Positions 4,462-41,753 of a stretch of DNA of 64,000 bases are shown one piece after another (the stretch's first letter is position 1; the number at the start of each line of letters is the position of its first letter). The notes beneath the pieces were generated by a model. That model worked only from the letters and a program-made list of their open reading frames with translations, was not told the origin of the DNA and searched no databases. The position numbers were made by a program, and so were the translations under genes. Source of the stretch: an uncultured Thermoleophilia bacterium. GTDB lineage: Bacteria; Actinomycetota; Thermoleophilia; UBA2241. Location of the stretch: positions 2,789 through 66,788 of the forward strand of contig CAIOZS010000210.1 in the NCBI GenBank assembly GCA_903862845.1, given 5' to 3'.

Positions 4462-4575
4462 GGACGCAGTGTACATCGCCCGCCGTTTGGCCCCACGCCG
4501 CTGCGGCAATGACCCGGGGGAAGATCACACGGCGGCGGCGCTGCGCCGGCCGCCGCCCAACGAGAGGAGGGACTC

Positions 4576-5025
4576 GTGCTGAAGGAAGGCGACAAGTCAC
4601 CAAAGGTCACCGGAACGTCATACGACGGCGCCACCTTTGACCTGGGGACGCCCGGCAGGCGTACCGTCCTGTGGTTCTACCCGAAAGCCAACACCGGTGG
4701 CTGAACGACAGAAGCCGTTGAGTTCAACGGCCTGCTGGACGAGTTCGGCACGCTGGACGTCCAGGTCATCGGCGCCAGCATCGATGCGGCCAAGGCAAAC
4801 CAGAAGTGGGCCGCGAAGTACGACCTGAGGATGCCCCTGATCGGCGATGTCGGCGAGCACGAGGTGGCCAACGCCTTCGGCGTGGCGCGGCCCATGGTCG
4901 GCGTGGCCAAACGCACCACGTGGCTCATCGACCCCGACGGCACGATCCGCAAGATCTACCCCAAGGTGACGCCAAAAGGCCACGCCGCCGAGGTGCTGGC
5001 CGCAGCGAAGGAGCTCTGGAGCTGA
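4576..5025 (+). CDS. bcp: Bcp-type peroxiredoxin with an in-frame TGA (putative selenocysteine) at the peroxidatic Cys position
   Basis: GTG start after GAGAGGAGGG. The protein reads VLWFYPKANTGG-[TGA at about 4702-4704]-TTEAVEF...IGASIDAAKANQKWAAKYDL.MPLIGD...TTWLIDPDGTIRKIYPKV. It aligns along its full length with Bcp (FYPKAxTPGCT...). The TGA falls exactly on the catalytic Cys column, and the frame continues for 107 more codons. Confidence 0.7.
4714..4731 (+). other. Hairpin 9 nt downstream of the in-frame TGA (candidate bacterial SECIS element)
   Basis: GCCGUUG-AGUU-CAACGGC has a perfect 7 bp stem. Its loop contains G-U and sits about 18-20 nt after the UGA, similar in placement to the fdhF SECIS apical stem-loop. 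Confidence 0.4.
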
Positions 5026-5028
5026 GGT

Positions 5029-6036
5029 CTACGCCTCGTCTGCGCCGGTCTGGCGGGGGCCGAAGTACGCCGGCGCGTCGATCATGAAGATGCGGCTCGA
5101 CCAGCTCTCGCCGCCGGCCGTAGCCTTTTCGGCGTCGTCGACGGCGCCGATGCGCGCCGTCATGTCGTCGCAGTAGTGCACAATGATGGCCTCGCGGGTC
5201 TGCGGCACCACGGGGCTGCCCTTTTCGCGCATGCCGTGGTGCGACACGATGATGTGCAGCAAGCGCTTGGCGGCCTCGGCGGGAAAGCCGGGGACCTCGG
5301 CGACGAGCTCGCGAACCATGTCGTGGCCGATGACGATCTCGCCGTGCAGCCTGCCGGCGTCGGTCATGAGCGGCGCCATGCCGTCGCTGGTGTAGGCCTG
5401 CGTCTTGCCGATGTCATGCAGCAGCGCTCCGGCGACGACGAGGTCGCGGTCGACGGAGTCGAAGCGCGACGCCACCCCGGCGGCCGCCTCGGCGACGATG
5501 AGCGAATGCTCGAGCAGCCCGTGCCGGTAGGCGTGGTGGTTGCGCACCGCCGCCGGGGCAACGCCGAAGGTGGCGCCGGGCTCCCGCGAGCCGTCGAAGA
5601 CACGCTCCAGGAGGGCACGCAGGTGCGGCTCTCCCACAGAGTCGATGAGCGCGTGCAGGCGTTCGCCCAGCTCGGCGGTGCCGACGGGCGATACCGGCAC
5701 GAGATCGCCGGCATCGTACTCGTCGGGCGCGGCGAGCCTCAGGCGGCGCACCTGGATCTGGGGTCCATACTGCGGGTGGACACTGTAGGTGCCGCCGGCC
5801 ACGACCACGTCTCCGGCAGACACCCCCAGCGCCTCTTCTGACGGGTCAAAGTGGATGCACGAAACCTCTGCGCTGGCGTCGCGCAGCTTGAGGCGCAGGT
5901 AGGTCTTGCCGTTGCGATCGGTGGCCGTGGTCTTTTCCGTGCAGGTGAAGTAGGTGTCGACGGCCTGACCGTTCTCCAGCTTGGCGATGGGCGTGCGGGG
6001 CATCGCGGCCGCGAGGCCGCTGAGCTCGTTGATCAT
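5029..6036 (-). CDS. YhaM-like 3'-5' exonuclease (OB-fold plus HD domain)
   Basis: An N-terminal OB fold is followed by an HD phosphohydrolase motif (LLHDIGK...HH...D). The start has a strong SD (CCAAGGAGAGCAC-ATG). Confidence 0.8.
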   Translation of the reverse strand: MINELSGLAAAMPRTPIAKLENGQAVDTYFTCTEKTTATDRNGKTYLRLKLRDASAEVSCIHFDPSEEALGVSAGDVVVAGGTYSVHPQYGPQIQVRRLRLAAPDEYDAGDLVPVSPVGTAELGERLHALIDSVGEPHLRALLERVFDGSREPGATFGVAPAAVRNHHAYRHGLLEHSLIVAEAAAGVASRFDSVDRDLVVAGALLHDIGKTQAYTSDGMAPLMTDAGRLHGEIVIGHDMVRELVAEVPGFPAEAAKRLLHIIVSHHGMREKGSPVVPQTREAIIVHYCDDMTARIGAVDDAEKATAGGESWSSRIFMIDAPAYFGPRQTGADEA

Positions 6037-9979: not shown

Positions 9980-11389
9980 ATGAGAAGGGAGGGCGCGGTG
10001 TTTCCGAGTCACGACGCGGTCGTCACGGCCGTGCCCAAGTACGACCGCTATCCTCTGCTGGACGAGCTCGAGACCTCGACGGACGCGTTCACCGCGGCTC
10101 ACCCGGGCGTTGAGGTGTGGCCGGCCGGCGCCTCCCGCGACGGCCACCCGATCCGCTGCCTCGAGATCCCGGGCGGTCCGCTGCAGGCACTGCTCATCGG
10201 CGTGCCTCACCCCGAAGAGCCGGTCGGCGCACTGCTGCTCGAATACCTCCTGCCGCTGCTCGCTGATGGCTTGGCGGGGGAGCTGGGCTTCGGCTTCTCG
10301 GTGGTCAAGGTCGGCGATCCCGACGCGATGCGCCTCAACGAGGCCTGGTTCGCGGAGCCCTACGATCTGGCCGGGTTCCTGCTGCGCGCGTACCGGCCGC
10401 CCTTGGCCGACCAGTTCGAGTGGACCTTCCCCATGGAGTACAAGCGCTACGGCTTCACCCGGCCGCTACCCGAGGCGCGCGCCGTGATGGAGGCCGTGCA
10501 CCGGCGGCCGCTCGACCTCTACATGGCGCTGCACAACTCGAACTTCAGCGGCGCCTACTTCTACCTCTCGAGCGAGGACGCGGTGCTTCAAGAGGAGCTC
10601 GCCGCCGTCATGGCGGCAGCAGGGCTGCCGCCGCACTGCGGCGAGCCGGAGGTTCCGTATCTGGACGCGCTCTCCGATGGGGTCTTTCGCGCCTTCTCCC
10701 TGGTCGACGACTACGAGTACTACGAGAAGTACGGCGCCGACCCGGCGGTCCTGCTCACCAGCGGGACCTCGAGCGACGCCTATGCCGAGGCCGTGTGGGG
10801 CTGCTTCACGCTGGTCGCCGAGGTGCCGTACTTCACCAGCGCCAAGATCGCCGACAAGAGCGCGGCCGGCCTCACGCGGGCCGCGGCCAAGCTGCGCGGC
10901 CTCGACGTGCAGCAGCAGCTCGCCGGCTGGGTGCACGAGCGCTACGTGCTGGCCGCACCGCACCTCACGCGCGAGACGCCGTGGCAGCGTACCGTGCACG
11001 CCTACCTCAGCGCCGTCAAAGACGACCTCCGTGCCGAGCGCACGCAGGTCGAGACCGAGGCCCTGTTCCAGCGCGAAGCGACGGTGGCGCAGCTCTTCGA
11101 TTCGCTGTACCTGCGCGAGCTGGACGCGCTCACCCGCGTGGGCCAGTTCGCCAACATGCTCGCCGCCGAGCCCCAGCAGAACGACGCGCTGGTCACTCTG
11201 CGCGCCGAGGCCGAGGCCAAGGTGCGCGAGCGCGCGCCCCGGCTTGCCTCGGCGGGCGCCCTGGAACCCGTGCCGATCCGAACGCTTGTCCAGTGTCAGC
11301 TCGCCGCCCTGCTGTGCACGCTCGTCGCGGTGCGCGAGCGCTACCGACCCGCGCACCCGAGACCCTCGGCGCCCCGGATGACTCTTTGA
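9980..11389 (+). CDS. M14-like zinc peptidase family protein (paralog B)
   Basis: HxxE motif (GVPHPEEPVG) and a downstream His (LHNSNFSGAYFYLS). It is collinear with paralog A along its full length. Confidence 0.55.
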   Translation: MRREGAVFPSHDAVVTAVPKYDRYPLLDELETSTDAFTAAHPGVEVWPAGASRDGHPIRCLEIPGGPLQALLIGVPHPEEPVGALLLEYLLPLLADGLAGELGFGFSVVKVGDPDAMRLNEAWFAEPYDLAGFLLRAYRPPLADQFEWTFPMEYKRYGFTRPLPEARAVMEAVHRRPLDLYMALHNSNFSGAYFYLSSEDAVLQEELAAVMAAAGLPPHCGEPEVPYLDALSDGVFRAFSLVDDYEYYEKYGADPAVLLTSGTSSDAYAEAVWGCFTLVAEVPYFTSAKIADKSAAGLTRAAAKLRGLDVQQQLAGWVHERYVLAAPHLTRETPWQRTVHAYLSAVKDDLRAERTQVETEALFQREATVAQLFDSLYLRELDALTRVGQFANMLAAEPQQNDALVTLRAEAEAKVRERAPRLASAGALEPVPIRTLVQCQLAALLCTLVAVRERYRPAHPRPSAPRMTL

Positions 11390-11390
11390 T

Positions 11391-11905
11391 GTGTCACTCT
11401 GGCGCCGACGACGTCGAGGCCATGCGCGACTGGGACGAGCTCAGCGTCCTCCCCGTGCCGCTGGTGTTCCGGGACGGCGTGAGCGGTGCGCTCACCCTGA
11501 TCGAGAAACGCGCCTCACGCCGCTCACGAAGGAAGAGCGCGAGCTGACCGCCACCCTGGGCGAGCAGGCCGCAGGGGCCATCGAACGCGCGCGTCTCTAC
11601 CAGCGCGTGCAGGACAAGACGGTCACCGGCGGTCCCATCGGCCTGTTCAATCACCGCTACTTCTACAAGCGCCTCGAACAGGAGATCGCGCGAGCCAGAC
11701 GGTACGGCATGCCGGTGTCGCCGCTGATGATCGACCGGGACGAGCTCAAGGCGTTCAACGACCGGCACGGCGCCGAGGATGTGGCGGAGCGCATCCGCCG
11801 CATGGTCGGTGCGACGCATTTCACCGGCAGCGACGGCAGGAGGCGGACGCCGCGCGGTGCAACGCCGAGCGCGCCGGCAAGAACAGGGTCGCGAGCTACG
11901 GCTGA
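11391..11905 (+). pseudogene. Remnant of a GAF-GGDEF diguanylate cyclase (multiple frameshifts, N-terminally truncated)
   Basis: The GAF end (LTKEERELTATLGEQAAGAIERARLYQ), the GGDEF start (LFNHRYFYKRLEQEIARARRYGMPVSPLMIDRDELKAFNDRHG) and the GGDEF end (ADAARCNAERAGKNRVASYG) lie in three different frames. The GGEEF core is missing. Confidence 0.6.
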
Positions 11906-12010: not shown

Positions 12011-12406
12011 CTACTGGACGGCGATGATCAGATTCTTGCTGTAGCCCTTGACCCCGCCTGCCGCCCAGACCGCGCGGTACCTGATCAGGCTCATGGTCGG
12101 GTCTGTCGCCGTGAGCTTGGCGGAGAAGATCCCCTTGTTGCCGTTCAGCCAGTCGGGCTTGACCTGCGCGACCTTCACCCACGAGCTGTTGGACTTCTTC
12201 TGGATGGTCACGTACTTGGAGCCCGTACCGCCGTTCGTATTCTTCACGGTGCCGTTCACCGTGAAGGCGGCATTCAGGTCAACGCTCGACGGTCCCTTGA
12301 GCGTCACGACTGGTGCCATCGCGCCGGCGAACACCGCCGGGGCTAGAATGATGACGGCGAACGCCGCCAACAGCACCAGCACCATCCACACTCTTCCCCG
12401 TCTCAT
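12011..12406 (-). CDS. Small secreted protein, tandem paralog 1 (signal peptide, about 110 aa mature)
   Basis: N-terminal signal peptide with GGAGGAGA before the ATG. Shares a ...L[KR]GP...NG..K....RY[RK]AAW.. scaffold with the next two genes. Confidence 0.65.
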   Translation of the reverse strand: MRRGRVWMVLVLLAAFAVIILAPAVFAGAMAPVVTLKGPSSVDLNAAFTVNGTVKNTNGGTGSKYVTIQKKSNSSWVKVAQVKPDWLNGNKGIFSAKLTATDPTMSLIRYRAVWAAGGVKGYSKNLIIAVQ

Positions 12407-12557: not shown

Positions 12558-12959
12558 TCAGTCGATCTCGACCCTGAGGACGTTGCTGCGCGTGGTCCCT
12601 TCGGGATGCATCCAGGCGGCCCTGTACCTGGCGATGCCCATGGCGGAAGGAGTGGCCGTGACCCAGAAGGCCACGATGCCCTTGCGGCCGCCGTCCGTCC
12701 ACGTTGGCGCCTTCGCGCCGATCCGCTTCAAGTCGCCGTTCTTGTTCTGCATGATGATGGCGACCCGCCAACCGTCGGCACGTTGCGGATTGCGGATCGT
12801 CGCGGTGAGCTTGATCAGCGCGCCATAGTCGGCGGAGCTGGGGCCCCTGAGCTTGATTGTCACGCCCGCCGTCCGCCCCAAGGCCGCCGGAGCAAGGACG
12901 GCCACAAGGAGGGCGGCCACCGCGGTGAAGAGCGCGAGCGACCGGAACTGCTTCATCAT
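12558..12959 (-). CDS. Small secreted protein, tandem paralog 2
   Basis: Signal peptide (MMKQFRSLALFTAVAALLVAVLAPAALG) and a conserved C-terminus (MGIARYRAAW...NVLRVEID). Confidence 0.65.
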   Translation of the reverse strand: MMKQFRSLALFTAVAALLVAVLAPAALGRTAGVTIKLRGPSSADYGALIKLTATIRNPQRADGWRVAIIMQNKNGDLKRIGAKAPTWTDGGRKGIVAFWVTATPSAMGIARYRAAWMHPEGTTRSNVLRVEID

Positions 12960-13092
12960 CCCACCTCCACGCAAGGGGTTGCGCCATGCCCGCCCTCCGG
13001 TCGCGCGTCGCGGCCGCGCGGCGTGCATGGACTCCACAGCGGGAGCCTGCCCGCCGGAGTGAAGAAGTATGTCGCCTCGCGGCGCCCGGGCC

Positions 13093-13488
13093 TCAGTCGA
13101 TCTCGACGCGCCAGACGTTGCTGCGGGCGATCCCGGCCGGGCTCTTCCATGCGACCCTGTACATGGCGATGCCCATCGCCGACGGCACGGCCTTGACGCG
13201 GAGGAACGCGAAGCCGACGGAGCCGCCCGTTGCCCAGACGACCGTCTTGGAGGCGATGCGCCGCAGATGGCCATTCTTGTTCTGCAGCAGGACGGCGGGC
13301 CCGTAGCCGCCGGTGTAGTCATTCGTGTCCTTGATCGTCACGCTGAGCCTGATCGTCGCGCCCTGAGCCGCTGCCCTGGGGCCCTTGAGCTTGACGGTGA
13401 CACCGGTGGCTCCTGAAGCCGCCGGGGCGAGAACGGCCGCGCAGAGGGCCAGCACCACGGCGAGCAGTACCACAGACTTGAGCTTCAT
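13093..13488 (-). CDS. Small secreted protein, tandem paralog 3
   Basis: Signal peptide (MKLKSVVLLAVVLALCAAVLAPAASG) and a conserved C-terminus (MGIAMYRVAW...NVWRVEID). Confidence 0.65.
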   Translation of the reverse strand: MKLKSVVLLAVVLALCAAVLAPAASGATGVTVKLKGPRAAAQGATIRLSVTIKDTNDYTGGYGPAVLLQNKNGHLRRIASKTVVWATGGSVGFAFLRVKAVPSAMGIAMYRVAWKSPAGIARSNVWRVEID

Positions 13489-13663
13489 CTCCCAACCTCC
13501 TCGAGACTGGTGCGCCGCTCCCTTGCGACAGGCGCTTCGGCGCGGCGCGGTTTCCATGCGCTCTCTATCGGCAGCGCACGCGGCGAAGGTGAGCCTTGCG
13601 CCGCGGAGCGACGGCCGGTGGGACGGGACGGCGGTCCATGCGCCCGCGCAAACCCGGCGGCGG

Positions 13664-26179: not shown

Positions 26180-28033
26180 CTACTGCACCAACACCGCGTC
26201 GCGGTTGCAGACGTCCTTGCAGATGCCGCACTTGATGCAGAGCTCCTGGGTAATGGTGTGCGGCTGCTTCTTCTCGCCGACGACGGCATCCTGAGGGCAG
26301 CGAACGGCGCACAACGTACAACCGTTGCAGCGTTCCGCGAGGATGCTGAAGCTGATAAGCGCCTTGCAGACCCCCGCCGGGCAGCGCTTGTCGTCCACAT
26401 GCGCGAGGTACTCCTCGCGAAAGTAGCGCAGCGTGGACAGGACCGGGTTGACCGCACTCGTGCCGAGGGCGCAGAGGGAGGTGGCCTCGACGGTGTCGGC
26501 GAGCTCCTCGACGAGGGCGATGGTCTCGCGCGTGCCGCGGCCCTCGGTGATGTCGCCGAGCAGGTCGTGCAGGATGCTGAGCCCGTCGCGGCACGAGGTG
26601 CAGTTGCCGCACGACTCGGAGGCCAGGAAGCGCAGAAAGTACTTGGCGACGTCCACCATGCACGTTTCCTCGTCCATCACGATCATGCCGCCGGACCCCA
26701 TCATGGAGCCCTCGGCGACGAGTGTGTCGAAGTCCACCGGCACGTCGAGCTTGTCCGCCGACAGGCAGCCCCCAGATGGACCGCCGGTCTGGACGGCCTT
26801 GAAAGCCTTGCCATCAGGGATGCCTTCGCCCACGTCGAAGATGATCTGGCGCAGGGTCATGCCCATCGGCACCTCGACAAGCCCCGTGTTGTTCACCATG
26901 CCGACGAGGGAGAAGATCTTGGTACCGGGAGAACCTTCGGTGCCGATCGCACGAAACCACTCCGCCCCGTTGAGCAGAATGAGCGGGACGTTGGCCCAGG
27001 ACTCCACGTTGTTCACGTTGGTCGGCCGACCCCACAGGCCGTGCTCGGAGAGGTGGATGAGTCGTCGATGCGGTACGCCGCGACGACCCTCGAGCGAAGC
27101 CATCATGGCGCTGGCCTCACCGCAGACGAACGCGCCGCCGCCCCTGCTCACCCGTACGTCGAAGGACAGGTCGCTTCCCAAGATGGCGTCACCGAGCAGG
27201 CCCAGCGCCCGCGACTGCTCGATCGCAAGGTCGAGGTGCTCCACCGCCAAAGGGTACTCCTGACGGACGTACACGTAGCCCTCGCGTGCTCCCATGGCGA
27301 AGGCGCCGATGGTCATCCCCTCGAGCACGCTGTGAGGATTCCCCTCGAGGATCGAGCGGTCCATGAAGGCGCCCGGATCGCCCTCGTCGGCGTTGCAGAC
27401 CACGTAGCGCAGTTCACCCGCCGCGCTGCGGCACGCCTCCCACTTGCGGCCGGCCGGGAAGCCCGCGCCGCCGCGACCGCGCAGGCCGGAGCGTTTGACC
27501 TCCTCCAGCACCGCCGTCGGGCCCATCTCCAGGGCTCGCACCAGCGCCGAGTAGCCGCCGGCGGCGATGTAGTCGTCGATCGACGTGGGGTCGAGCTGCC
27601 CTGTGTCGCGCAGCACGATGCGCCGCTGGTGACTATAGAACGGGATGTCTTCCTCCCGGCGGTACCGCTGACCGGTCACCGGGTCCTCGCACAACAGGCG
27701 CTCCAGCACCTCTCCGCCGAGCAGGGTCTTCTCGACGATCTCGACCACGTCCGCGACCTGCACGTGCTCGTAGAGGATGCCCTCGGGCAGCACCTTGACA
27801 AGCGGCCCACGCTCGCAGAACCCGTGGCAGCCGGTGGCCCGCATGCCGACCGTGCGGTCGGCCCCGTGTGCGTCGATCTCAGTGCACAGAGCGTCGAACA
27901 CCTTCATCGCCCCCTGCGCCCGGCAGCCGGTCCCGCCGCAGACGGCGACGACCTTGTGACGGGTGTCCTCGGTGGCGACCAGCACGTCGCGATGACGCGA
28001 CAATGCTCCCGGATCGGAGAACACCCCGCTCAC
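26180..28033 (-). CDS. NuoF/HoxF/HndC-like NAD(P)H-binding flavoprotein subunit, with an N-terminal thioredoxin-like 2Fe-2S domain and a C-terminal 2x[4Fe-4S] domain
   Basis: GGAGFPAGRKW, FMN and NADH motifs, ESCGNCTSCR, and C-terminal CxxCxxCxxxCP x2. GTG start overlaps the upstream stop (GTGA) after AAGGAGGA. Confidence 0.85.
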   Translation of the reverse strand: MSGVFSDPGALSRHRDVLVATEDTRHKVVAVCGGTGCRAQGAMKVFDALCTEIDAHGADRTVGMRATGCHGFCERGPLVKVLPEGILYEHVQVADVVEIVEKTLLGGEVLERLLCEDPVTGQRYRREEDIPFYSHQRRIVLRDTGQLDPTSIDDYIAAGGYSALVRALEMGPTAVLEEVKRSGLRGRGGAGFPAGRKWEACRSAAGELRYVVCNADEGDPGAFMDRSILEGNPHSVLEGMTIGAFAMGAREGYVYVRQEYPLAVEHLDLAIEQSRALGLLGDAILGSDLSFDVRVSRGGGAFVCGEASAMMASLEGRRGVPHRRLIHLSEHGLWGRPTNVNNVESWANVPLILLNGAEWFRAIGTEGSPGTKIFSLVGMVNNTGLVEVPMGMTLRQIIFDVGEGIPDGKAFKAVQTGGPSGGCLSADKLDVPVDFDTLVAEGSMMGSGGMIVMDEETCMVDVAKYFLRFLASESCGNCTSCRDGLSILHDLLGDITEGRGTRETIALVEELADTVEATSLCALGTSAVNPVLSTLRYFREEYLAHVDDKRCPAGVCKALISFSILAERCNGCTLCAVRCPQDAVVGEKKQPHTITQELCIKCGICKDVCNRDAVLVQ

Positions 28034-28521
28034 GTTGGCTCCTCCTTCTTGAGGAGCTCGTCTACCAGTCGCGAGAGCCGTTCCCCGGTCATGTGGCCGT
28101 GGTACTCGTCGTCGATGAGGACGAGTGGACCCAGGGCGCACGCGCCCACGCAGCTGACCTCCTCCACGGTCAGTGACAGGTCCGGCGTGGTGCCGCCCGC
28201 CGTGACTCCGGTGTCTCGTTCGAGCTGCTCCAGGAGCCGCGGCGCGCCGCGCACGTGGCAGGCGGTGCCCATGCAGACGGTGCAGGTGTGCTCGCCGCGG
28301 GGCTCGGTGTGGAAGCCGTGGTAGAAGGTGGTCACGCCGTACACGTGGGCGGGCGACAGTCCCAGGTAGGACGCCGTCTCCTGCAGAGCGCTCTCAGGGA
28401 GGTAGCGGAGCGCGGCCTGCAGGTCGTGCAGGATGTTCACGAGGTCGCCCGGATCGCGCCGAGGATAGCGCGCCAGGATTGCCGCTACGCGGCCGGTGTC
28501 GCTGGCCTGAGTCTCGCTCAC
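28030..28521 (-). CDS. NuoE-like 2Fe-2S thioredoxin-fold subunit
   Basis: CTVCMGTACHVRG...CVGACALGP motifs. GTG start after GGGAGG. Confidence 0.8.
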   Translation of the reverse strand: MSETQASDTGRVAAILARYPRRDPGDLVNILHDLQAALRYLPESALQETASYLGLSPAHVYGVTTFYHGFHTEPRGEHTCTVCMGTACHVRGAPRLLEQLERDTGVTAGGTTPDLSLTVEEVSCVGACALGPLVLIDDEYHGHMTGERLSRLVDELLKKEEPT

Positions 28522-28875: not shown

Positions 28876-30678
28876 CTAGAGGGCCAGTTCCTTGAGTTTG
28901 GCCTCGGTGGGCACGCCTTCCTCGTCCCAGCCGCGGAGCTCGTAGTACTCGGGCAGCATGTCGTCGAGGCGACTGACGTGTCCCTTCGACGGGCCGGTCT
29001 TGATCGGCTCGGTCAGCAGGCGCTGCGGCAATGCGTCGTCCGCCTTGGTGAAGCCGGCCGTGAGGTTCCAGAGCCGCTCCTGGTTCCAGATCCGCTCGCC
29101 GATGCGCATGAACTCGTCCAGCGTGTAGTCCACGCCGGTCAGAGCCGCCAGCATCTCGGTGAGCTCGGCGCCGCCGATCCCGAAGGTCGCGAAGAGACAG
29201 GCGCCGCTCGAGTCCAGCGCCGCCGTGAGGTCCTGGAACGTGATGCCCAGCCCGGCCTTGTCGTCGGTCACGTGCGGGTCCATCACGGCGCCGTTCTGCA
29301 GCACCTCGATGGCGATGGTGTAGCCGCGCACGTGGCAGCCGCCACGGTTGCCGGTCGCGTAGTTGAGGCCGATGCCCTGCACGCCACGCGGGTCGTAGGC
29401 GGGCATCTCCTGCTTCTTGCAGGTCATGGAGTACTCCGGGTGACCGTAGCTCTCGGCGAGGCGGTACGAGCCCTGAGCGAGCTTGGCACCGAACCCCTCC
29501 CCTTTGCCGGTCTTGTGCACCATCTCGACCATGGCCGCCGTGTTGCCGAACGTGAGCTGCACCCCATCAGTGTCCTCGGTCGTAATGATGCCCCGCTCGA
29601 AGAGCTCCATCGCGCAGGCCACCGTCGAACCCATCGATATGGTGTCGAGCCCGTACTCGTTGCAGTAGTAGTTGGCTTTGGTGATGGCGTCCAGGTCGTC
29701 GATGCCACAATCGGCGCCGAATGCCCAGGCGGTCTCGTACTCCGGCCCCTCGCCGCTGCCCTTGTAGTCTGGGCTGTCGACCTTGGTGACCCGGCCGCAG
29801 GAGATGATGCAGCTGAAGCAGCCCTTGGGCCGGATCAGCTGCTTGGCGGCGAGCGACTCGCCGCCGGTCTTGTCGGCGGTGGGGAAGTAGCCGTCCTGGA
29901 AGTTACGCGTCGGCAGCGCGCCCGACTGATTGAGGATGTTGACGAGCACGTCGGTGCCGTAGGCCCTGAGGCCGGTGCCGCCGACGGGGTGAGCCTGGAT
30001 CATCTGGCGCGCCTTCATCACGGCGGCCTTGAAGCCCTCGGGGTCGGCGACCTTCACGGCGCCGCTGCCGAATACGGCGACGGCTTTGAGGTTCTTGGAG
30101 CCCATCACCGCACCGACGCCGGTGCGGCCCGCGGCGCGGTGCATCTCGTTCATGATGTTGGCGATCAGGGAGAGATGCTCACCGGCCGGTCCGATGCATG
30201 AGACCTTGGCGTCTTCGTCGGTCTCGGCGCGCACGAGGTCGGTGGTGTCGGGGGTAGTGTGGCCCCAGAGCGCGGCCGCGTCGCGGATCTCCACCTGGTC
30301 GTCTTTGATCCACAGGTAGACGGGCTTGGCGGACTTGCCCTCGATGATGAGGGCGTCGTAGCCCGCGTACTTGAGCTCCGGGCCGAACGTGCCGCCGGAG
30401 TTGGAGGCGGCGAGCACGCCGTTCAGCGGACCCTTGGTGACGACGTCGAAGCGTCCGGCCGCCGGCGCGAACGTGCCGGTCAGAGGCCCCGGCGCGAAGA
30501 CGATCTTGTTGTCCGCGCCGAGAGCGTCGGTCTTGGGGTCGACCTCGGAGCGCACGATGTGGCCGCCGAGGCCGCGTGCCCCGAGATAGTCTCGCGCGAG
30601 CTGCGGGTCGGTGGCCTCACGGCTCACCTTGCCCTTGGTGAGGTCGATGCGGAGGATGGTGCCGGTCCAACCGAACAT
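28876..30678 (-). CDS. Aldehyde:ferredoxin oxidoreductase family tungsten (or Mo) enzyme
   Basis: Full-length AOR signature: the N-terminal domain, the EXXH and GxD pterin-binding regions, and the CxxC...C 4Fe-4S ligands (CFSCIISCGR). Confidence 0.9.
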   Translation of the reverse strand: MFGWTGTILRIDLTKGKVSREATDPQLARDYLGARGLGGHIVRSEVDPKTDALGADNKIVFAPGPLTGTFAPAAGRFDVVTKGPLNGVLAASNSGGTFGPELKYAGYDALIIEGKSAKPVYLWIKDDQVEIRDAAALWGHTTPDTTDLVRAETDEDAKVSCIGPAGEHLSLIANIMNEMHRAAGRTGVGAVMGSKNLKAVAVFGSGAVKVADPEGFKAAVMKARQMIQAHPVGGTGLRAYGTDVLVNILNQSGALPTRNFQDGYFPTADKTGGESLAAKQLIRPKGCFSCIISCGRVTKVDSPDYKGSGEGPEYETAWAFGADCGIDDLDAITKANYYCNEYGLDTISMGSTVACAMELFERGIITTEDTDGVQLTFGNTAAMVEMVHKTGKGEGFGAKLAQGSYRLAESYGHPEYSMTCKKQEMPAYDPRGVQGIGLNYATGNRGGCHVRGYTIAIEVLQNGAVMDPHVTDDKAGLGITFQDLTAALDSSGACLFATFGIGGAELTEMLAALTGVDYTLDEFMRIGERIWNQERLWNLTAGFTKADDALPQRLLTEPIKTGPSKGHVSRLDDMLPEYYELRGWDEEGVPTEAKLKELAL

Positions 30679-30679
30679 C

Positions 30680-31162
30680 TCAGCTCACCTCCTGGAAGGC
30701 ATCCTTGAACTTGGCCGCGTAGGCCTTCTTGCGCGAGCGCACGTGCTGCTCGTCGTCGACGAACTCGAGGGCCCCGTTGGGGCAGAAGGTCACGCACTCG
30801 GGCGCGCCCTGGCAGGTGTCGCACTTGAAGATGCTGCTCGAGGCGGCGTCGTAGCGGGCGTTGCCGAACGGACAGGCAATGGTGCACATCTTGCAGCGGA
30901 TGCAGGTGCCCGCGTCCCAGTCCACGAGGTTCGCCAGCGCGTTGCTGCGATGCATGGCGCCGGTGGGGCAGACGGTGACGCAGGCGGCGTCGTCACACTG
31001 CTGGCACATCATCGGTACCGACATGCCCTCGCGCTCCCAGGTGTACGCCTGCACACGCGAGGCTCCCGGGCGGAACTGGCCCTCGTGCTCGAACGAGCAG
31101 GCCAGCTCACAGTTGCGGCACCCGGTGCACTTGTCCGGGTGGATCATGAGTACCTTGGCCAT
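30680..31162 (-). CDS. 4Fe-4S ferredoxin-type electron-transfer subunit (AorA/BamC-like)
   Basis: Four CxxCxxCxxxCP-type motifs. Strong SD (AAAGGAGGGAGCC-ATG). The stop lies 2 nt before the AOR start. Confidence 0.8.
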   Translation of the reverse strand: MAKVLMIHPDKCTGCRNCELACSFEHEGQFRPGASRVQAYTWEREGMSVPMMCQQCDDAACVTVCPTGAMHRSNALANLVDWDAGTCIRCKMCTIACPFGNARYDAASSSIFKCDTCQGAPECVTFCPNGALEFVDDEQHVRSRKKAYAAKFKDAFQEVS

Positions 31163-31302: not shown

Positions 31303-32811
31303 CTACGGCAGCCGCCGGTCGAGAAGCTCGGCAGCGCGCAGGCCGAGCTGGACGTCGACGACGTCGTCGAGGTCGTCGAGGTCGATCCCGAGGATCTGCT
31401 CCACGTGCGCCAGCCGCTTCTGGAGCGTGTTGCGATGGATGTGCAGTGCGTCGGCGGTCTGCTGGACCGCGCGGCCGTGGGCGAACAGCTCGTGGAGTGT
31501 CTGGAAGAGACTGGCGTGGTGCTGGGCGTCGTAGTCCAGGAGCGGCGCGAACGTGCGCCGAACGATGCCGGCGAGAGCGTTCTGGTCCAGACCGTCGAGA
31601 AGTCGCAGGTGGCCGGCCAGCTCCTCGAACACGGCTGTGCTGGCAGGAGATGGGCCGCGGCGAGCCGCCATGCAGGCCGCCTTGGCCTGCTGCAGGCTGC
31701 GCGGCGCGCCGTCCACCCCTGCCAGGGGAGCCGAGCACCCGACGACGACCCCGCCGGGCAAGATCACCTTTGCCGCCGCCTCCTGCAGCTCGGCGACCAG
31801 AACCCTCGCCGTGCTCGTCTCGGCGTCGGCGAGTGTGGCGAGCACGAGGGCCGTGGACCCCGACGACAGGCTGAGAAACGGGACCCGGCGTCTGCTCACC
31901 ACGGCGTCGAGGGCGTGCAGGAGTCTGGCGCCGGAGGGTGCTCTTCTCCGCGCGCCGACCGCCGGCCGCGGGGCGGCCGCAAGCGACGCCGGCTCGACGA
32001 CCGCGAGTCGCAGCGTGCCGCTGGTATCGAAACCCTGTTCCTGCATGCGGATGCGCAGCTCCTCCAGGCCGCCTTCACCGGCGAGGATGTCGCGGAGCAG
32101 ACCGCGGCGCACACGTCTGCGCATCCGCAGCTCGTCACGGCTCCGTAGCAGATCGAGCGTGACGAGCTGTTGCAAGAACGACAACGACGCGCCGGCGAGC
32201 TCCGAAGGCTGCCGAGCCGGGGCCACGGCGGCGAGCACGCGCTCGACGCGGTCCATCACGAGGATGTCGCGGTAGAAGATGTGGTCGCCGGCGTTCTCGA
32301 CCCTGCCGAGGTAGCCCGGGACGTTGCGCAGATCCCTGTAGACGGCCCAGAGGCGGAGCGCGAGGCCGGGCGAGCTCTCGGCGCTGCGCGACGAGCACAC
32401 GGTGTGCCCGCGGGTGTCGAACAGCACCATCGGCATGTCGATGAGCGCGGCGACCGTGTCGATGAGCTCTCCGACATCCTTCTGCTGGACGACCAGCTCG
32501 AGCAGCCGGATCTGGAGCGCCGCCGTGCGGCGCAGCGTCTGCATGTCACCGGCCGCCGACGCCTCGGGGTCATCGGCGGTCTCCTCGCCGTCCTCCGCGT
32601 CGCCCAGGGACGCCTCGAGCTCCTCGGTGTGCAGGCGCACCTGGTGCTGCAGCATGATCGTCGTCTGGAAGAGATCGAATCCGGAACCCTGAGGTTTGGT
32701 GCCCGACTCGACGCGGTTCATGAGCGCTTGAACGATCTTGTTGAGCCGCACGATCTCGGCCTCCAGTGCCTGTATGTCCGGGCCGTCGCCCGGCCGCACC
32801 GCGTCAGGCAT
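31303..32811 (-). CDS. PucR/CdaR-family transcriptional regulator
   Basis: C-terminal PucR-type HTH (TLQKRLAHVEQILGIDLDDLDD) with an N-terminal GGDEF-like/sensory region. Confidence 0.8.
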   Translation of the reverse strand: MPDAVRPGDGPDIQALEAEIVRLNKIVQALMNRVESGTKPQGSGFDLFQTTIMLQHQVRLHTEELEASLGDAEDGEETADDPEASAAGDMQTLRRTAALQIRLLELVVQQKDVGELIDTVAALIDMPMVLFDTRGHTVCSSRSAESSPGLALRLWAVYRDLRNVPGYLGRVENAGDHIFYRDILVMDRVERVLAAVAPARQPSELAGASLSFLQQLVTLDLLRSRDELRMRRRVRRGLLRDILAGEGGLEELRIRMQEQGFDTSGTLRLAVVEPASLAAAPRPAVGARRRAPSGARLLHALDAVVSRRRVPFLSLSSGSTALVLATLADAETSTARVLVAELQEAAAKVILPGGVVVGCSAPLAGVDGAPRSLQQAKAACMAARRGPSPASTAVFEELAGHLRLLDGLDQNALAGIVRRTFAPLLDYDAQHHASLFQTLHELFAHGRAVQQTADALHIHRNTLQKRLAHVEQILGIDLDDLDDVVDVQLGLRAAELLDRRLP

Positions 32812-33964
32812 CGCCGGCCTCGGCGGGCCCGGCTCCGAGAGCCACGCCGGTCAGCGTCTGGTTGATGTGAACGCCGCAGAACTGCTCGCCGTAGGTGTTG
32901 AAGCCCACCGCGTTGTGACGTCGCAGCATGTCACTCACGGCCGCGTTGAGGCCGGTCTCCGCGATCTCCAGCTTGCGCAGGATGCAGTCACAGGCGAGGA
33001 CGAGCTCGGGCTCGCCGACCTCCGCCCGGACCCTTGCCAAGGCCTGCTCGAGGTTAGTGACCAGGTTCATTCCCTTGGCCTCCCGGAGAACGACTCCCCG
33101 CTCGATCGCGCAGTAAAAGGTCAGGCTGCCGTCGGGACTGGCCTTCTGGATGGAGCGCACGTAGTTGGCGCCGTCGATCAGCACGACCACAGGCGACGCT
33201 GCGAAATGGATCGGCGAAAGATCCTCCGGGGAGACGCCGAGCAGGCGGGCGTATTCCTGGGCGGCCGGCAGCCCGTTGATCTCCTTCACGACGCGGCGCA
33301 AGGGATCAGCCTCGGTGACGACGAGCCGTTCTTCAGTGGGCACGAAGTGCTGCGTCTTGAACGTCTTCACGCGCAGCGGCGTGGAGACCAGCGTGAGCAC
33401 GGCCGCGTCGCTGAGGAACCGGCCGCCCGAGTAGACTTGTGTGCTGGCGAAGCTCAGAGCATCGCCTGCGGAGCCGCCGACGACAGGGATCTCGCCGAGC
33501 GCCTCCTGGACTGAGTAAGCCAGCAGTTCCTCACGCGCGGAGAGCCCGTCGACGAGCAGGAAGGCGAAACGATGCCAGCCCTCCCGCCCCGGTGTGAGGC
33601 CGTCGATCTCGTCGAGCAGACCGCGGGCGATGGCATGGCCGTCGCCGATCTCGAAGCCCTGCAGTCCTTCGATGGATTGGGTGACGGCGGCGCAGGCGCC
33701 GGGGGAGAAGCTCACTCCGGCGATGCTCCCGTCGAGACAGCCGATCGGCCCGATCTCTCCTGCCGTCGTGCAGCCAATCACCTGGACGCCGGCGAAGCGC
33801 CGCGCCATCTCGCAGGCCAGAACATCGCGGTCGTAGGCGCTCGAGCAGAAGAAGATCACGAGCGACATCGCGGGCTGCGCGACGCCGGCGAAGAGCTCCT
33901 CCACGGCGTCGCGTGGATCGGTGGCGCAGGACTGCGCGGTGCGGATGCCGTGCCGGTCGCTCAT
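32804..33964 (-). CDS. FIST (N and C) domain sensor protein
   Basis: Layout matches the FIST_N and FIST_C domains. Strong SD (GAGGGGAGGGG). It overlaps the PucR start by 8 nt. Confidence 0.75.
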   Translation of the reverse strand: MSDRHGIRTAQSCATDPRDAVEELFAGVAQPAMSLVIFFCSSAYDRDVLACEMARRFAGVQVIGCTTAGEIGPIGCLDGSIAGVSFSPGACAAVTQSIEGLQGFEIGDGHAIARGLLDEIDGLTPGREGWHRFAFLLVDGLSAREELLAYSVQEALGEIPVVGGSAGDALSFASTQVYSGGRFLSDAAVLTLVSTPLRVKTFKTQHFVPTEERLVVTEADPLRRVVKEINGLPAAQEYARLLGVSPEDLSPIHFAASPVVVLIDGANYVRSIQKASPDGSLTFYCAIERGVVLREAKGMNLVTNLEQALARVRAEVGEPELVLACDCILRKLEIAETGLNAAVSDMLRRHNAVGFNTYGEQFCGVHINQTLTGVALGAGPAEAGDA

Positions 33965-34356
33965 GGTGCGTCCCCTCCCCTCATGATCACCCGGCCTCCC
34001 TTCGTGGGCCCTGTCCCATGATAGTCCGCGGAGAGGCGCGTGGGGATGGACGGTCCAGCGCGCGATGGGCTCGGGCCTCCCAGCGCAGCCCGGTCCCACC
34101 GAGCGGCGCGTACTGTGCGTTTGGCAGGCGCTCTTGAGGCGCCGCTCCCCGCGGGTGGGATACATGCCAGGCGGTCTCCATCAGTCGGAGAACCCGGTCA
34201 ACCAGAGCTTCGCCGGTCCGTGGCAGGGACTTCACGGCAACGGCGGCCCGGGTAGGGCCGGCCGCCGGCAGCGTGTACACTAAGAGAACCCGCCCGGCCG
34301 GCGTAGCGCCGCCGGGCGTTCGAGCGTCACTCACCCCCGACAGAAAGACCACGACC

Positions 34357-38828: not shown

Positions 38829-40403
38829 CTACAAGCGCCGCAACTCCGCGATCGCCGCGGCGATGATCGTCTGCTGACGCTCGATCTCGTCGAGCAGCTC
38901 CTCCGGCGTGCGCGTGTCTTCGTTGACGACTCGGTGCGGGTTGACCGCCTTGAGGTCGTAGTTGCTGGCCTCGATTGCGTCGCGCATCACCGTCCAGCTG
39001 CGTTCCGAGTCGGGCCGGTCCGCTGCGCCCCCGGCCCGGCAGTCCCCGACCAGCTCGAAGAAGTCGCCCATGCGCGCCAGCGTGAAGGGCGTCTTCTTGC
39101 CGACCTTGAGGTCGCTGAGGTCGTAGTACCAGATGCGCTCGGTGGGCCGGCCCTTGTTGAAGAACAGCAGGTTGGTCTTGACGCCGGCGCGGGCCTGGCT
39201 GAACACGCCCGGCGGCATGCTCAGAATGCACCAGAGGTCGCAGTCGTCGAGCAGCTTGCGCTTGGTCCGCACGAAGGCGGTCTCGTTGGTGCGGAAGAGC
39301 ACGCCTTCATCGATGACGAGTCCGCAGCGGCCGCCGGTGACTTCGTCACCCGCCGGCGGCCGCAAGCTGTCGATCACGTGCTGCAGGAAGAGCACCTGAG
39401 TGGCGCCCGTCTTGTACGCGAAGCGCGTCTGCGCGTCCTTGCCCTCCTTGCCGCCGAAGGGCGGGTTCATGAGGATGACATCGTAGAGCGGCGGGGCGCC
39501 CTCGAAGAGGCCGTCGTAGGCGGCCGTGGCCGTCAGCGTGTTGCCATGCCAGATGTGCGGCGCGTCGATGCCGTGCAGCACCAGGTTGGCGAGCGCGATG
39601 GGATACACGGCGTTGTCCTTCTCGCGGCCGTAGAAGGTGTGCTCCTGCAGCGTCGTGAGCTGGTCGCCTGAAGTGATGTTGGCGTTGCCGGCGCCGGTCA
39701 TCTGCTCGAACGATTGTGCGAGGAAGCCGCCGGTGCCGCAGCCCGGGTCGTAGACCGTCTCGCCGATGCGTGGATCGATGACGCGCACCATAGCGCGGAT
39801 GATTTCGCGCGGCGTGAAGAACTGGCCGCCGTCGTTGCCCTTCTCGCCCATCTTGAGCAGCAGGCCTTCGTAGACCTGCGAGACCGTGAAGACGTGCGTG
39901 GTGTCGACGGCGGTGTGGTCGATCTCGTCGACCTTGTCGATGACGTCGAGGAAGTTGCGCTCGGTGTCGATGCGCGTGCGCTCCACCGAGCTCATGATCT
40001 GGCTAATGACCTTCTGCCGCGAGCTCGCCTGCGGCTGCTCGCCCAGCTCCCGAAGGTGCGGCAGAAGCTCCTCGTGGAGAAAGTGGAAGAAGGCGCCGAG
40101 CGCGCCCGACTACCGTTCGGCGCGCTTGGCACCGTCCGGCGCCGCCCAGTCGCACCAGCGGTACGGCGCCGTCAGAGAGGGCTTGTACTCGGCGCCCACG
40201 GCGCGTGCCTCGTCGGCCTCGATCTCTTCGCGTTCGACGAGGATGCGCAGGAAGAGGATCCAGGTGAGCTCCGGCACGTACTGCAGCGCGCCGGCGCAGT
40301 TTGAGCGCCACATGATGTCGCAGATCTGCTTGACGGCGGCGTTGGCCGACTGCTGAGTGGGGAGCTTCTTGCCGCTGGCCGCTGGATGACCTGGTCCGTT
40401 CAC
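38829..40403 (-). pseudogene. hsdM: Type I restriction-modification methyltransferase subunit HsdM, disrupted by a single in-frame TAG
   Basis: The N-terminal HsdM_N segment (..WILFLRIL..) ends ...GAKRAER-TAG. The same frame continues into the methylase core with the NPPFG motif. No hsdS or hsdR is nearby. Confidence 0.7.
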
Positions 40404-41554
40404 ATGTCCTCCAGGGGGGTCTCGATCGCGCGCATGATCTCGGAGGCGACGAAGACGCGCCGCCAGGCGCGCTCGCCCATGTCCTCGAGGATCTGGGCAT
40501 CAAGAAGCTTGTCCATGGCGCGCTTGGCCGTAGGCGTGCTGACGCCCAGCGCCTGGGCAACGCCGGCTGTCGTGACGTAGGGACTACGGAAGAGCTCGTC
40601 GACCAGCGCGACGGCCCGCGGGGCTCGTCGCAAGAGCTCGTGATAGCGCTCGCGGAGATCCATCAGCGTCGCCGCTTGCCTTGCGGCTCTCTCCGAGGTC
40701 TCCGCGACCCCGGCCAGGAAGAACAGGAGCCAACCTCGCCAGTCGCCCTCCGTCCGCACTCGCAGCAGCGCGTCGTAGTAGTCGTTGCGGTGCGCGTCGA
40801 TGAATGCCGACAAGTAGAGCAGCGGCTGAGACAGGCGTTCGCGCTCGACGAGGAACAGGGTGATCAACAACCTGCCGACGCGACCGTTGCCGTCGAGAAA
40901 CGGGTGGATGGCCTCGAAGTGCTCGTGCATGAGAGCGCACTGGACGAGCACCGGCATGGTGTCGCGCTCGTGGAGGAATCGCTCCCACAGCCCGAGCGCC
41001 TCGGTCATGTCGGGGACGGGTGGAGGAACGTAGGTGGCCGTCGCGAGCGTCGATCCCGGCGGCCCTATCCAGTTCTGAAGACGGCGAAGCTCGCCCGGCG
41101 CACTCGTCCCGTCACGGACTCCCCGCATGAGCTGTTCGTGCACTTCTCGCACCAAGCGCAGGGACAACGGCAGCTCCGCCAGTCGCGCCAGCCCGTGCTC
41201 CATCGCCGTCACATAGTTGCGCACCTCGCGGAGGTCATCGCGTCCGCGTTCCGTGGTCGCACCGCCGGCTTGGTCGATGAGCAATTCGGACAGCGTCGTC
41301 ACTGCTCCCTCGATGCGTGACGAGAGCACGGCCTCCTGGCGGAGGTAAGGAGCAATGAGCAGGTGAGGATCCGGGAGCTGACGGCCCAATCCGGACAGCT
41401 CGCTGAGCGCGCCGTCGGCGCGCGAGAGGGCGAGCACAAGCTCGGCGTCGTAGGCGATCGTCGGCGGAAGCGGCGCGGGGACGAAGGCGAGCGCGCCGTC
41501 CATGGTGGCCACCAGTCGGCCAGCCGCTGGAGCATGGAAGTCCTCTGCCTTCAT
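40400..41554 (-). CDS. fic: Fic family protein (HPFx[DE]GNGR motif) with a C-terminal winged-helix domain
   Basis: HPFLDGNGRVGRLLITLFL motif. It overlaps the hsdM start by 4 nt. Confidence 0.85.
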   Translation of the reverse strand: MKAEDFHAPAAGRLVATMDGALAFVPAPLPPTIAYDAELVLALSRADGALSELSGLGRQLPDPHLLIAPYLRQEAVLSSRIEGAVTTLSELLIDQAGGATTERGRDDLREVRNYVTAMEHGLARLAELPLSLRLVREVHEQLMRGVRDGTSAPGELRRLQNWIGPPGSTLATATYVPPPVPDMTEALGLWERFLHERDTMPVLVQCALMHEHFEAIHPFLDGNGRVGRLLITLFLVERERLSQPLLYLSAFIDAHRNDYYDALLRVRTEGDWRGWLLFFLAGVAETSERAARQAATLMDLRERYHELLRRAPRAVALVDELFRSPYVTTAGVAQALGVSTPTAKRAMDKLLDAQILEDMGERAWRRVFVASEIMRAIETPLEDM

Positions 41555-41576
41555 GCTCGCCCCTCGACGAATGGAG

Positions 41577-41640
41577 CATTGAACAGTTTCTTTCAATGCA
41601 GGTTGACCTTTGAACGTTTCATGCCGGATTCTTTCAGAGC
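41577..41640 (-). promoter_or_regulatory. AT-rich palindrome/direct-repeat operator-like element with a TTGACC box upstream of fic
   Basis: The palindrome is CATTGAAcagtttcTTCAATG. The repeats TTGAACAGTTTC and TTGAACGTTTC flank a TTGACC box. Local GC is well below the window average. Confidence 0.3.
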
Positions 41641-41753
41641 CTGCCGAGCAACGCAAGGTACCCAATCGGCTTTGCCATATCCTCAAAGCGGCCCGATTCC
41701 TGCAAGGCCTCCTGTCACTTCACGACAAGAAGCCCGCGTGCAACGCGGAACAG

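Follow-up and report, generated by a model that had tools for sequence, protein, structure and literature searches.

The window analysed here, a stretch of 64,000 nucleotides from an uncultured Thermoleophilia bacterium, carries on its forward strand, at positions 4576–5025, a candidate selenoprotein gene of the BCP/PrxQ type. Translation of this region yields one AhpC/TSA-type peroxiredoxin (Prx) of 149 residues with a single internal stop codon, a TGA at 4702–4704, which is predicted to encode selenocysteine (Sec) as residue 43. The translation reads MLKEGDK...WFYPKANTGG up to the internal stop and continues as TTEAVEFNGLL...TTWLIDPDGTIRKIYPKVTPKGHAAEVLAAAKELWS to an ordinary terminating TGA at 5023–5025. 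The gene starts with the GTG at 4576, which is preceded, after a spacer of 5 nt, by an AGGAGG ribosome-binding site on the same strand (4565–4570; read off the sequence), and its orthologs have their start codon, ATG or GTG, at the corresponding place (MLKEGDK...).

An earlier note, made from the sequence of the window, had proposed that translation from this GTG gives a Bcp/PrxQ protein, that the TGA replaces the codon of the peroxidatic cysteine (Cp), and that the frame stays open for 107 more codons. The first of these proposals was borne out by matches to PrxQ/BCP models in NCBIfam and by a match to Pfam AhpC-TSA (PF00578; E = 6.7e-28, 97.6 bits versus a cut-off of 26), which was computed with Cys written at the internal stop and whose alignment covers residues 5–126 and thus spans the TGA. 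The second agrees with the alignments described below. As to the third, the frame does remain open, over 106 sense codons, the number 107 being reached if the terminal stop is counted. The G + C content at third codon positions (GC3) in the frame of the gene amounts to 0.78 ahead of the TGA and 0.91 past it, versus 0.48–0.61 in the other two frames, and by translation, domain matches, GC3 and the selection analysis below the coding sequence (CDS) is complete. The same note had expected that callers of open reading frames (ORFs) would miss the gene, and the list of ORFs indeed holds only one of 42 amino acids (4576–4704) and one of 64 amino acids (4831–5025). The gene is likewise cut into a 42-aa and a 64-aa ORF in the public annotation of two metagenome contigs, L088 and L089, which match the window at 99.94% identity and extend it by 6.8 kb upstream.

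Conservation of the in-frame UGA

A search of 5.8 billion proteins retrieved 546 relatives. Among the best 120 of these, 116 are C-terminal fragments of 81–107 aa that cover 54–70% of the query, a pattern that is expected if gene callers halt at one codon in all these genomes; the remaining four are full-length proteins, each of which has Cys at the site. The DNA of 80 related loci was taken from GTDB species representatives, the closest of them showing 90% protein identity and a DNA identity of approximately 88% over the neighbourhood. Except for one locus truncated before the site, all were informative, and at the Cp column TGA stands in 76 of these 79 (75 loci and a paralog in L069). TAA or TAG occurs in none, and the other three loci, all from Gemmatimonadota, have the Cys codon TGC. 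The TGA-containing loci derive mostly from metagenome-assembled genomes (MAGs) labelled Thermoleophilia, Actinomycetes or Actinomycetota, with further representatives in MAGs of Blastocatellia, Pyrinomonadaceae and Terriglobia (some of them Acidobacteriota) and one labelled Deltaproteobacteria; the habitats given in their records are soils, lake sediment, permafrost and mire. In the alignments, residue 43 coincides with the Cp of the Cys-containing orthologs P0001 and P0002, of P0107, of the Gemmatimonadota loci and of the BCP proteins in the PDB. The UGA is thus aligned with the redox-active Cys of homologs and is itself conserved in orthologs, two properties by which selenoprotein genes are recognised.

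Coding constraint was found on both sides of the UGA. The ratio of nonsynonymous to synonymous substitution rates (dN/dS) was calculated as the mean of pairwise Nei-Gojobori estimates with our own script for 55 distinct ungapped orthologous CDS of 66–90% protein identity. It amounts to 0.19 (dS 0.74) for codons 2–42 upstream of the UGA and to 0.26 (dS 0.61) for codons 54–148 downstream of it, and none of these 55 genes contains a further stop or a frameshift. Selection downstream of the TGA, which the earlier note had singled out as a place to look for relaxation, is therefore purifying, and the low dN/dS on both sides indicates that both halves are kept as protein, which excludes a pseudogene. 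Codons 44–53 stand apart with a dN/dS of 0.07 and a dS of only 0.145.

Some of the related loci show peculiarities of their own. The MAG that contains both L055 and L069 (Thermoleophilia) carries at L069:1051–1098 a second, divergent Sec-Prx paralog with an insertion of approximately 11 residues before the UGA. In five loci from MAGs of the Microflora Danica type (L057, L068, L071, L072 and L074) apparent indels of one base disrupt the bcp frame but leave TGA and hairpin in place; these interruptions may reflect genuine decay or errors of long-read assembly. Directly upstream of the Sec-bcp gene in L044 (5430–6150) lies an in-frame stretch that ends in ...VTFRTDTAGVVRRVFQAIPPCGHARDVLEAARESW and is similar to the C-terminal end of a further Prx; it is possibly the remnant of a tandem duplicate.

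A hairpin constrained at the nucleotide level

The region of reduced dS contains the perfect 7-bp hairpin that the earlier note had placed 9 nt past the TGA. This hairpin, GCCGUUG-AGUU-CAACGGC, was located at 4714–4731 of the forward strand (stem 4714–4720 with 4725–4731, apical loop AGUU at 4721–4724; dG −10.2 kcal/mol) and is the putative core of a selenocysteine insertion sequence (SECIS). Its apical loop starts 16 nt past the UGA and has G as second base. It thereby has the form described for bacterial SECIS elements, a stem-loop that follows the UGA immediately and whose small apical loop contains G (PMC1088965). Taken as a single sequence, the hairpin is only moderately unusual: a comparable one follows 9 of the 1511 TGA trinucleotides (0.6%) in this window of 69% G + C, and the 81-nt fold has a z score of −2.36. 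The weight of the hairpin evidence lies in its conservation rather than in the single sequence.

The 55 distinct genes show no synonymous variant at all in codons 46–50 (GAA GCC GTT GAG TTC) and almost none in codons 51–53, and the mean codon entropy is 0.19 bits in codons 46–53 versus 1.08 bits outside codons 44–53. Among 60 conserved columns, defined as those with an amino acid conserved to at least 90% and a codon at least four-fold degenerate, a single codon is used in only three, of which two are the stem codons Ala47 and Val48. GTT is used at Val48 in 55 of 55 genes, compared with 1.4% of the Val codons elsewhere in these genes; GAA, which accounts for 17% of their Glu codons elsewhere, is used in the hairpin codons in all 55. 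The hairpin is thus conserved to the nucleotide and invariant at synonymous sites, as its proposed function in decoding had led the earlier note to expect. The third invariant codon lies outside the SECIS, at window positions 4948–4950, where the six-fold degenerate Arg125 is encoded by CGC in 55 of 55 orthologs.

Pairing in the stem is retained in 99.7% of the cells in an alignment of 53 distinct 48-nt segments. The seven departures comprise five G-U wobbles, one terminal mismatch and one compensatory change from UA to CG, the latter being found in the paralog of L069, where GTT to GTC is coupled to AAC to GAC (Asn to Asp). In a homolog from Terriglobia, whose peptide here is UTKEACEF, a hairpin with another sequence occupies the equivalent offset, and its loop begins with G; in two loci of the Blastocatellia group the hairpin fold is less clear. 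The minimum free energy fold further suggests an extended SECIS (4702–4747), in which a lower helix would form between UGAAC (4702–4706) and GUUCG (4743–4747). Although 96.6% of its cells are paired, this lower helix is without independent support, because the paired bases are also set by the protein sequence (Thr44, Glu56-Phe57).

The Cys-containing orthologs P0001 and P0002 serve as natural controls. Both are full-length proteins whose genes share the neighbourhood of the window gene, which consists of MetW, a cold-shock protein, a protein with metallo-beta-lactamase fold, in some cases a cupin, bcp, and a convergently oriented HD-domain protein. P0002 (L081/L082) combines TGC with an intact hairpin, a state that suggests a recent change of one base from Sec to Cys, with the hairpin left as a fossil. 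In P0001 (L083–L085) TGC is followed by GAG GCG AAG GAG TTC AAC GCC; here the stem is lost, the hairpin codons again show the usual GC-rich synonyms, and two residues of the protein differ. The nucleotide constraint on the hairpin is therefore tied to the presence of the UGA. A neighbour-joining tree places both proteins within the Sec clade, and the two Sec-to-Cys reversions inside this clade are independent of each other.

Probable selenocysteine decoding and alternative explanations

The sequence places the protein in a divergent clade of BCP-like peroxiredoxins that are not equivalogs of the enzymes of E. coli or Deinococcus. The best matches in NCBIfam, the PrxQ/BCP models, reach approximately 74 bits and stay below the equivalog cut-offs (73.5 versus 140 bits for the thiol peroxidase BCP, NF006960; 73.7 versus 260 bits for PrxQ, NF053650), and the model of PrxU (NF040737) scores 42.8 bits versus a cut-off of 270. 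The nearest sequence in the PDB is BCP/PrxQ of X. campestris (E = 1e-20). An AlphaFold2 model of the Cys ortholog P0002, which is 73% identical to the window protein, has a pLDDT (predicted local distance difference test) of 93.4 and aligns with BCP/PrxQ structures at template modelling (TM) scores of 0.85–0.91, residue 43 lying at the first turn of the helix that spans residues 41–52. The active site comprises Pro36, Thr40, residue 43 and Arg113. It has the motif P36-K-A-N-T40-G-G-U43, corresponding to the PxxxTxxC of peroxiredoxins, together with their Arg, which forms part of VAKRTTWLID and shows no variation in the alignments. The window protein has no resolving Cys; it carries Val at Cp+5 (Val48) and Ala at the position of Cys84 in helix alpha-3 of X. 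campestris. The protein contains no Cys residue at all, and about half of the orthologs have one at residue 144.

These features suggest the following mechanism. During translation the hairpin at 4714–4731 would act as a bacterial SECIS and recruit the complex of SelB, GTP and Sec-tRNA(Sec) to the ribosome, so that the UGA would be read as Sec and not as a stop. Within the PxxxTxxU pocket, Thr40 and Arg113 would activate the selenolate of Sec43, which could then reduce H2O2 or organic hydroperoxides and would itself be converted to a selenenic acid. Given the lack of a resolving Cys, established Prx chemistry points to a 1-Cys-type cycle, here a "1-Sec" cycle, in which the enzyme may be recycled directly by an external thiol reductant, for example thioredoxin.

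A general reassignment of UGA (genetic codes 4 and 25) was ruled out, since TGA is the commonest stop in the window, where it ends 31 of 47 GC3-supported ORFs, and also terminates the Bcp gene itself. Solirubrobacter belongs to the class Thermoleophilia according to a taxonomy look-up; Patulibacter and Conexibacter are members of the same class. The cultured Solirubrobacter soli, Solirubrobacter sp. URHD0082, Patulibacter americanus and Conexibacter woesei Iso977N are listed as positive for SelD, SelA and SelB (PMC5029168 Table S1), and the Sec trait therefore exists in this class.

Several results weigh against decoding of the UGA as Sec. Neither selA, selB, selD nor a tRNA-Sec gene was found in the 64-kb window, the additional 6.8 kb of flanking DNA and approximately 0.9 Mb of related loci. 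In particular, ARAGORN detected no tRNA-Sec in the window or in 60 related loci (and no tRNA of any kind in the 64-kb window), and an NCBIfam scan of 29 large ORFs of the window and the Bcp query retrieved none of the three sel genes. A scan for other in-frame TGA codons flanked on either side by coding signal, irrespective of a SECIS-like hairpin, revealed no second selenoprotein candidate in the window, nor in the approximately 0.9 Mb of loci. Rfam contains no SECIS-type or other credible family matching the whole window at gathering thresholds or positions 4560–5040 at E ≤ 10. The covariation signal of the hairpin is thin, with one compensatory change and an observed score reached by 15 of 500 shuffles; these weak statistics are due to the near-invariance of the stem, and the argument for RNA constraint is based on the conservation of synonymous sites and not on covariation.

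The searches for Sec machinery also yielded matches that had to be rejected. The sole match to TIGR00475 (selB) in the window is the GTPase domain of TypA/BipA. When SelA, SelB and SelD of E. coli were compared with the window and all loci by tblastn, only TypA and a weak SelA-like match in L056 (Thermoleophilia bacterium UBA6103) were obtained. The latter, a SelA-related pyridoxal phosphate-dependent enzyme encoded at 10298–11683 on the reverse strand, is according to NCBIfam a homolog of the DgaE-family ammonia-lyases and not a selenocysteine synthase; its gene lies approximately 4 kb from the Sec-bcp gene. The other in-frame TGA hits of the selenoprotein scan are stops of adjacent genes, antisense frames and terminators.

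The gene could, in principle, be an ordinary bcp inactivated by a TGC-to-TGA nonsense mutation and followed by a coincidental hairpin. Gene callers treat the TGA as a stop, and hairpins do occur by chance behind a small fraction of the TGA trinucleotides in the window. However, the identical TGA is found in 76 loci from two or more phyla, and these are not assembly copies of one sequence, as they include 55 distinct CDS at 66–90% protein identity. At a dS of approximately 0.6–0.7, purifying selection on the two sides of the codon, the lack of further stops and frameshifts and the invariance of the hairpin at synonymous sites leave a pseudogene with practically no probability, and the earlier note's view that a nonsense mutation is the poorer alternative can be sharpened to its exclusion by conservation. 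Equally hard to credit is that the region harbours two separate small genes, one for a 42-aa peptide and one for a redoxin fragment of 64–106 aa. Public gene calls do list the two apart, and a truncated relative (P0033) is named "redoxin domain-containing protein" at NCBI, but the C-terminal piece lacks a conserved start, the called fragments varying between 81 and 107 aa and differing in their first residues. Moreover, the Prx fold and the catalytic Pro, Thr and Cp are in the N-terminal piece and Arg113 is in the C-terminal piece, the Pfam and PDB alignments cross the TGA unbroken, and the Cys orthologs are single proteins of 149–152 aa.

A more serious alternative, albeit still an improbable one, is that the UGA is read through or recoded without Sec in a lineage lacking SelA and SelB, for example by near-cognate insertion of Trp or Cys stimulated by the hairpin. 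The failure to find Sec machinery in the window or in the related DNA that was retrieved is in keeping with it, and a decoded UGA with a constrained hairpin leaves the inserted amino acid undefined. Yet the UGA is situated exactly at the position of the redox-active Cys, where Trp or Gly would abolish catalysis, and Sec/Cys pairs in this column (TxxU/TxxC) are the hallmark of the known Prx selenoprotein family. The reversions lead to Cys (TGC), as expected for Sec, the hairpin directly 3' of the UGA has bacterial SECIS features including the small G-containing loop, and SelD, SelA and SelB are present in cultured Thermoleophilia. On balance, positions 4576–5025 very probably constitute one functional gene of a BCP/PrxQ-type selenoprotein, in which the UGA at 4702–4704 would encode the peroxidatic Sec.

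Other genes of the window and relation to known selenoproteins

Apart from the Bcp gene, the window contains several features on its reverse strand that merit mention. Three tandem paralogous ORFs of approximately 131–154 aa (12011–12406, approximately 12558–12965, and 13093–13557) have an N-terminal hydrophobic, signal-like stretch and the motifs KL(K/R)GP, MGIA(R/M)YR(A/V)AW and SNV(L/W)RVEID in common; they have no Pfam match in the public gene calls of the near-identical contig L088. At 26183–28393 and 28879–30684, two neighbouring genes encode a flavoprotein resembling NuoF that carries fused 2Fe-2S and 4Fe-4S ferredoxin domains (NuoF family, E = 3e-134, under the cut-off) and a protein resembling aldehyde:ferredoxin oxidoreductase; for the latter, the best match in NCBIfam spans only the first approximately 220 residues. 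A nitric-oxide sensor of the NosP type (32807–34180; E = 6e-134, slightly below the equivalog cut-off) adjoins a CdaR/PucR-like regulator (31306–32850). An N6-adenine DNA methyltransferase (hsdM/MAD2-like) adjoins a Fic protein adenylyltransferase at 38832–41719, and the G + C content drops to 0.64–0.67 over approximately 39–47 kb, versus approximately 0.69–0.72 elsewhere in the window. The methyltransferase/Fic pair and this dip may mark an acquired defence or mobile island.

Judged by its domain, its motif and the position of its putative SECIS, the window gene appears to belong to an already known kind of selenoprotein. Peroxiredoxins of this kind (COG1225, the COG of Bcp, with a TxxU motif) have been catalogued as a selenoprotein family since 2004–2005, among others in the surveys of Kryukov & Gladyshev and of Zhang & Gladyshev, and reappear in subsequent surveys of bacteria as well as in a review of 2026 (PMC1088965; PMC1794560; PMC13188914). 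The window protein shares with this family the PF00578 domain and the COG, the T40-G-G-U43 that forms TxxU within PxxxTxxU, the substitution of Sec for the peroxidatic Cys, the hairpin directly 3' of the UGA, and the widespread occurrence of Cys homologs. The members described here differ in forming a clade centred on Thermoleophilia from soil, sediment and wetland MAGs, in lacking a resolving Cys, and in having a SECIS that is nucleotide-invariant across the clade. No mention of this clade was found in the papers searched, which covered Thermoleophilia together with selenocysteine and included the BSepDB paper.

Comparison with individual systems refines this placement. PrxU of Eubacterium acidaminophilum was reportedly described by Sohling et al. 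in 2001. It provides an experimental precedent for a Sec-containing Prx (PMC13188914) and has Sec at the peroxidatic position as well, but it represents another Prx subfamily, its model comprising 233 positions as opposed to the approximately 149 aa of the window protein. The Cys-containing BCP/PrxQ proteins of known structure, namely PrxQ of X. campestris (5iiz, 3gkk), BcpB of M. tuberculosis (5epf) and Bcp1 and Bcp4 of Sulfolobus, likewise place the peroxidatic residue at the first turn of helix alpha-2, and the window protein shares their conserved Pro, Thr and Arg. Unlike enzymes of the E. coli BCP type (CxxxxC), the window protein has Val48 at +5, and unlike X. campestris PrxQ it has Ala in the place of Cys84 and Sec instead of the peroxidatic Cys. 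The Prx-like thiol:disulfide oxidoreductase selenoproteins are related to PF00578 and share the thioredoxin fold, but are thioredoxin-like and defined by a UxxC/UxxU motif (PMC13188914; PMC1088965), whereas in the window protein TxxU is followed by T-T-E-A-V without Cys at +3, which indicates a different family. With the SECIS paradigm of E. coli fdhF and fdnG, the window hairpin has in common its location within the CDS just 3' of the UGA and the small G-containing apical loop; it differs in its short and perfect 7-bp stem, its 4-nt loop AGUU and the lack of a bulged U in the core.

The finding leaves selenoprotein biology as such unchanged, as the TxxU Sec-containing peroxiredoxins are among the most abundant bacterial selenoprotein families known. 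Its practical value lies in the repair of annotations: 116 of the best 120 relatives are recorded only as truncated "redoxin" or "peroxiredoxin Q/BCP" fragments, or the gene is not called, and the antioxidant repertoire and selenium dependence of the Thermoleophilia, a widespread class in soil and sediment, are therefore under-reported. The gene also offers an example of dual coding, in which the demands of an RNA structure have fixed synonymous sites, one of them in a codon that is otherwise rare in the same genes. Tentatively, and with more doubt than confidence, we propose that the Sec form might be ancestral and near-universal in this BCP clade of uncultured Thermoleophilia from soil, sediment and wetland, with occasional reversions from Sec to Cys. 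The enzyme would then be a Cys-free "1-Sec" peroxidase, regenerated directly by an external reductant, whose SECIS has been frozen by an unusually strict recognition by SelB, which would fix the peptide EAVEFNG and exclude a resolving Cys at +5. If this is true, this gene could be a main reason why Sec decoding persists in this actinobacterial class.

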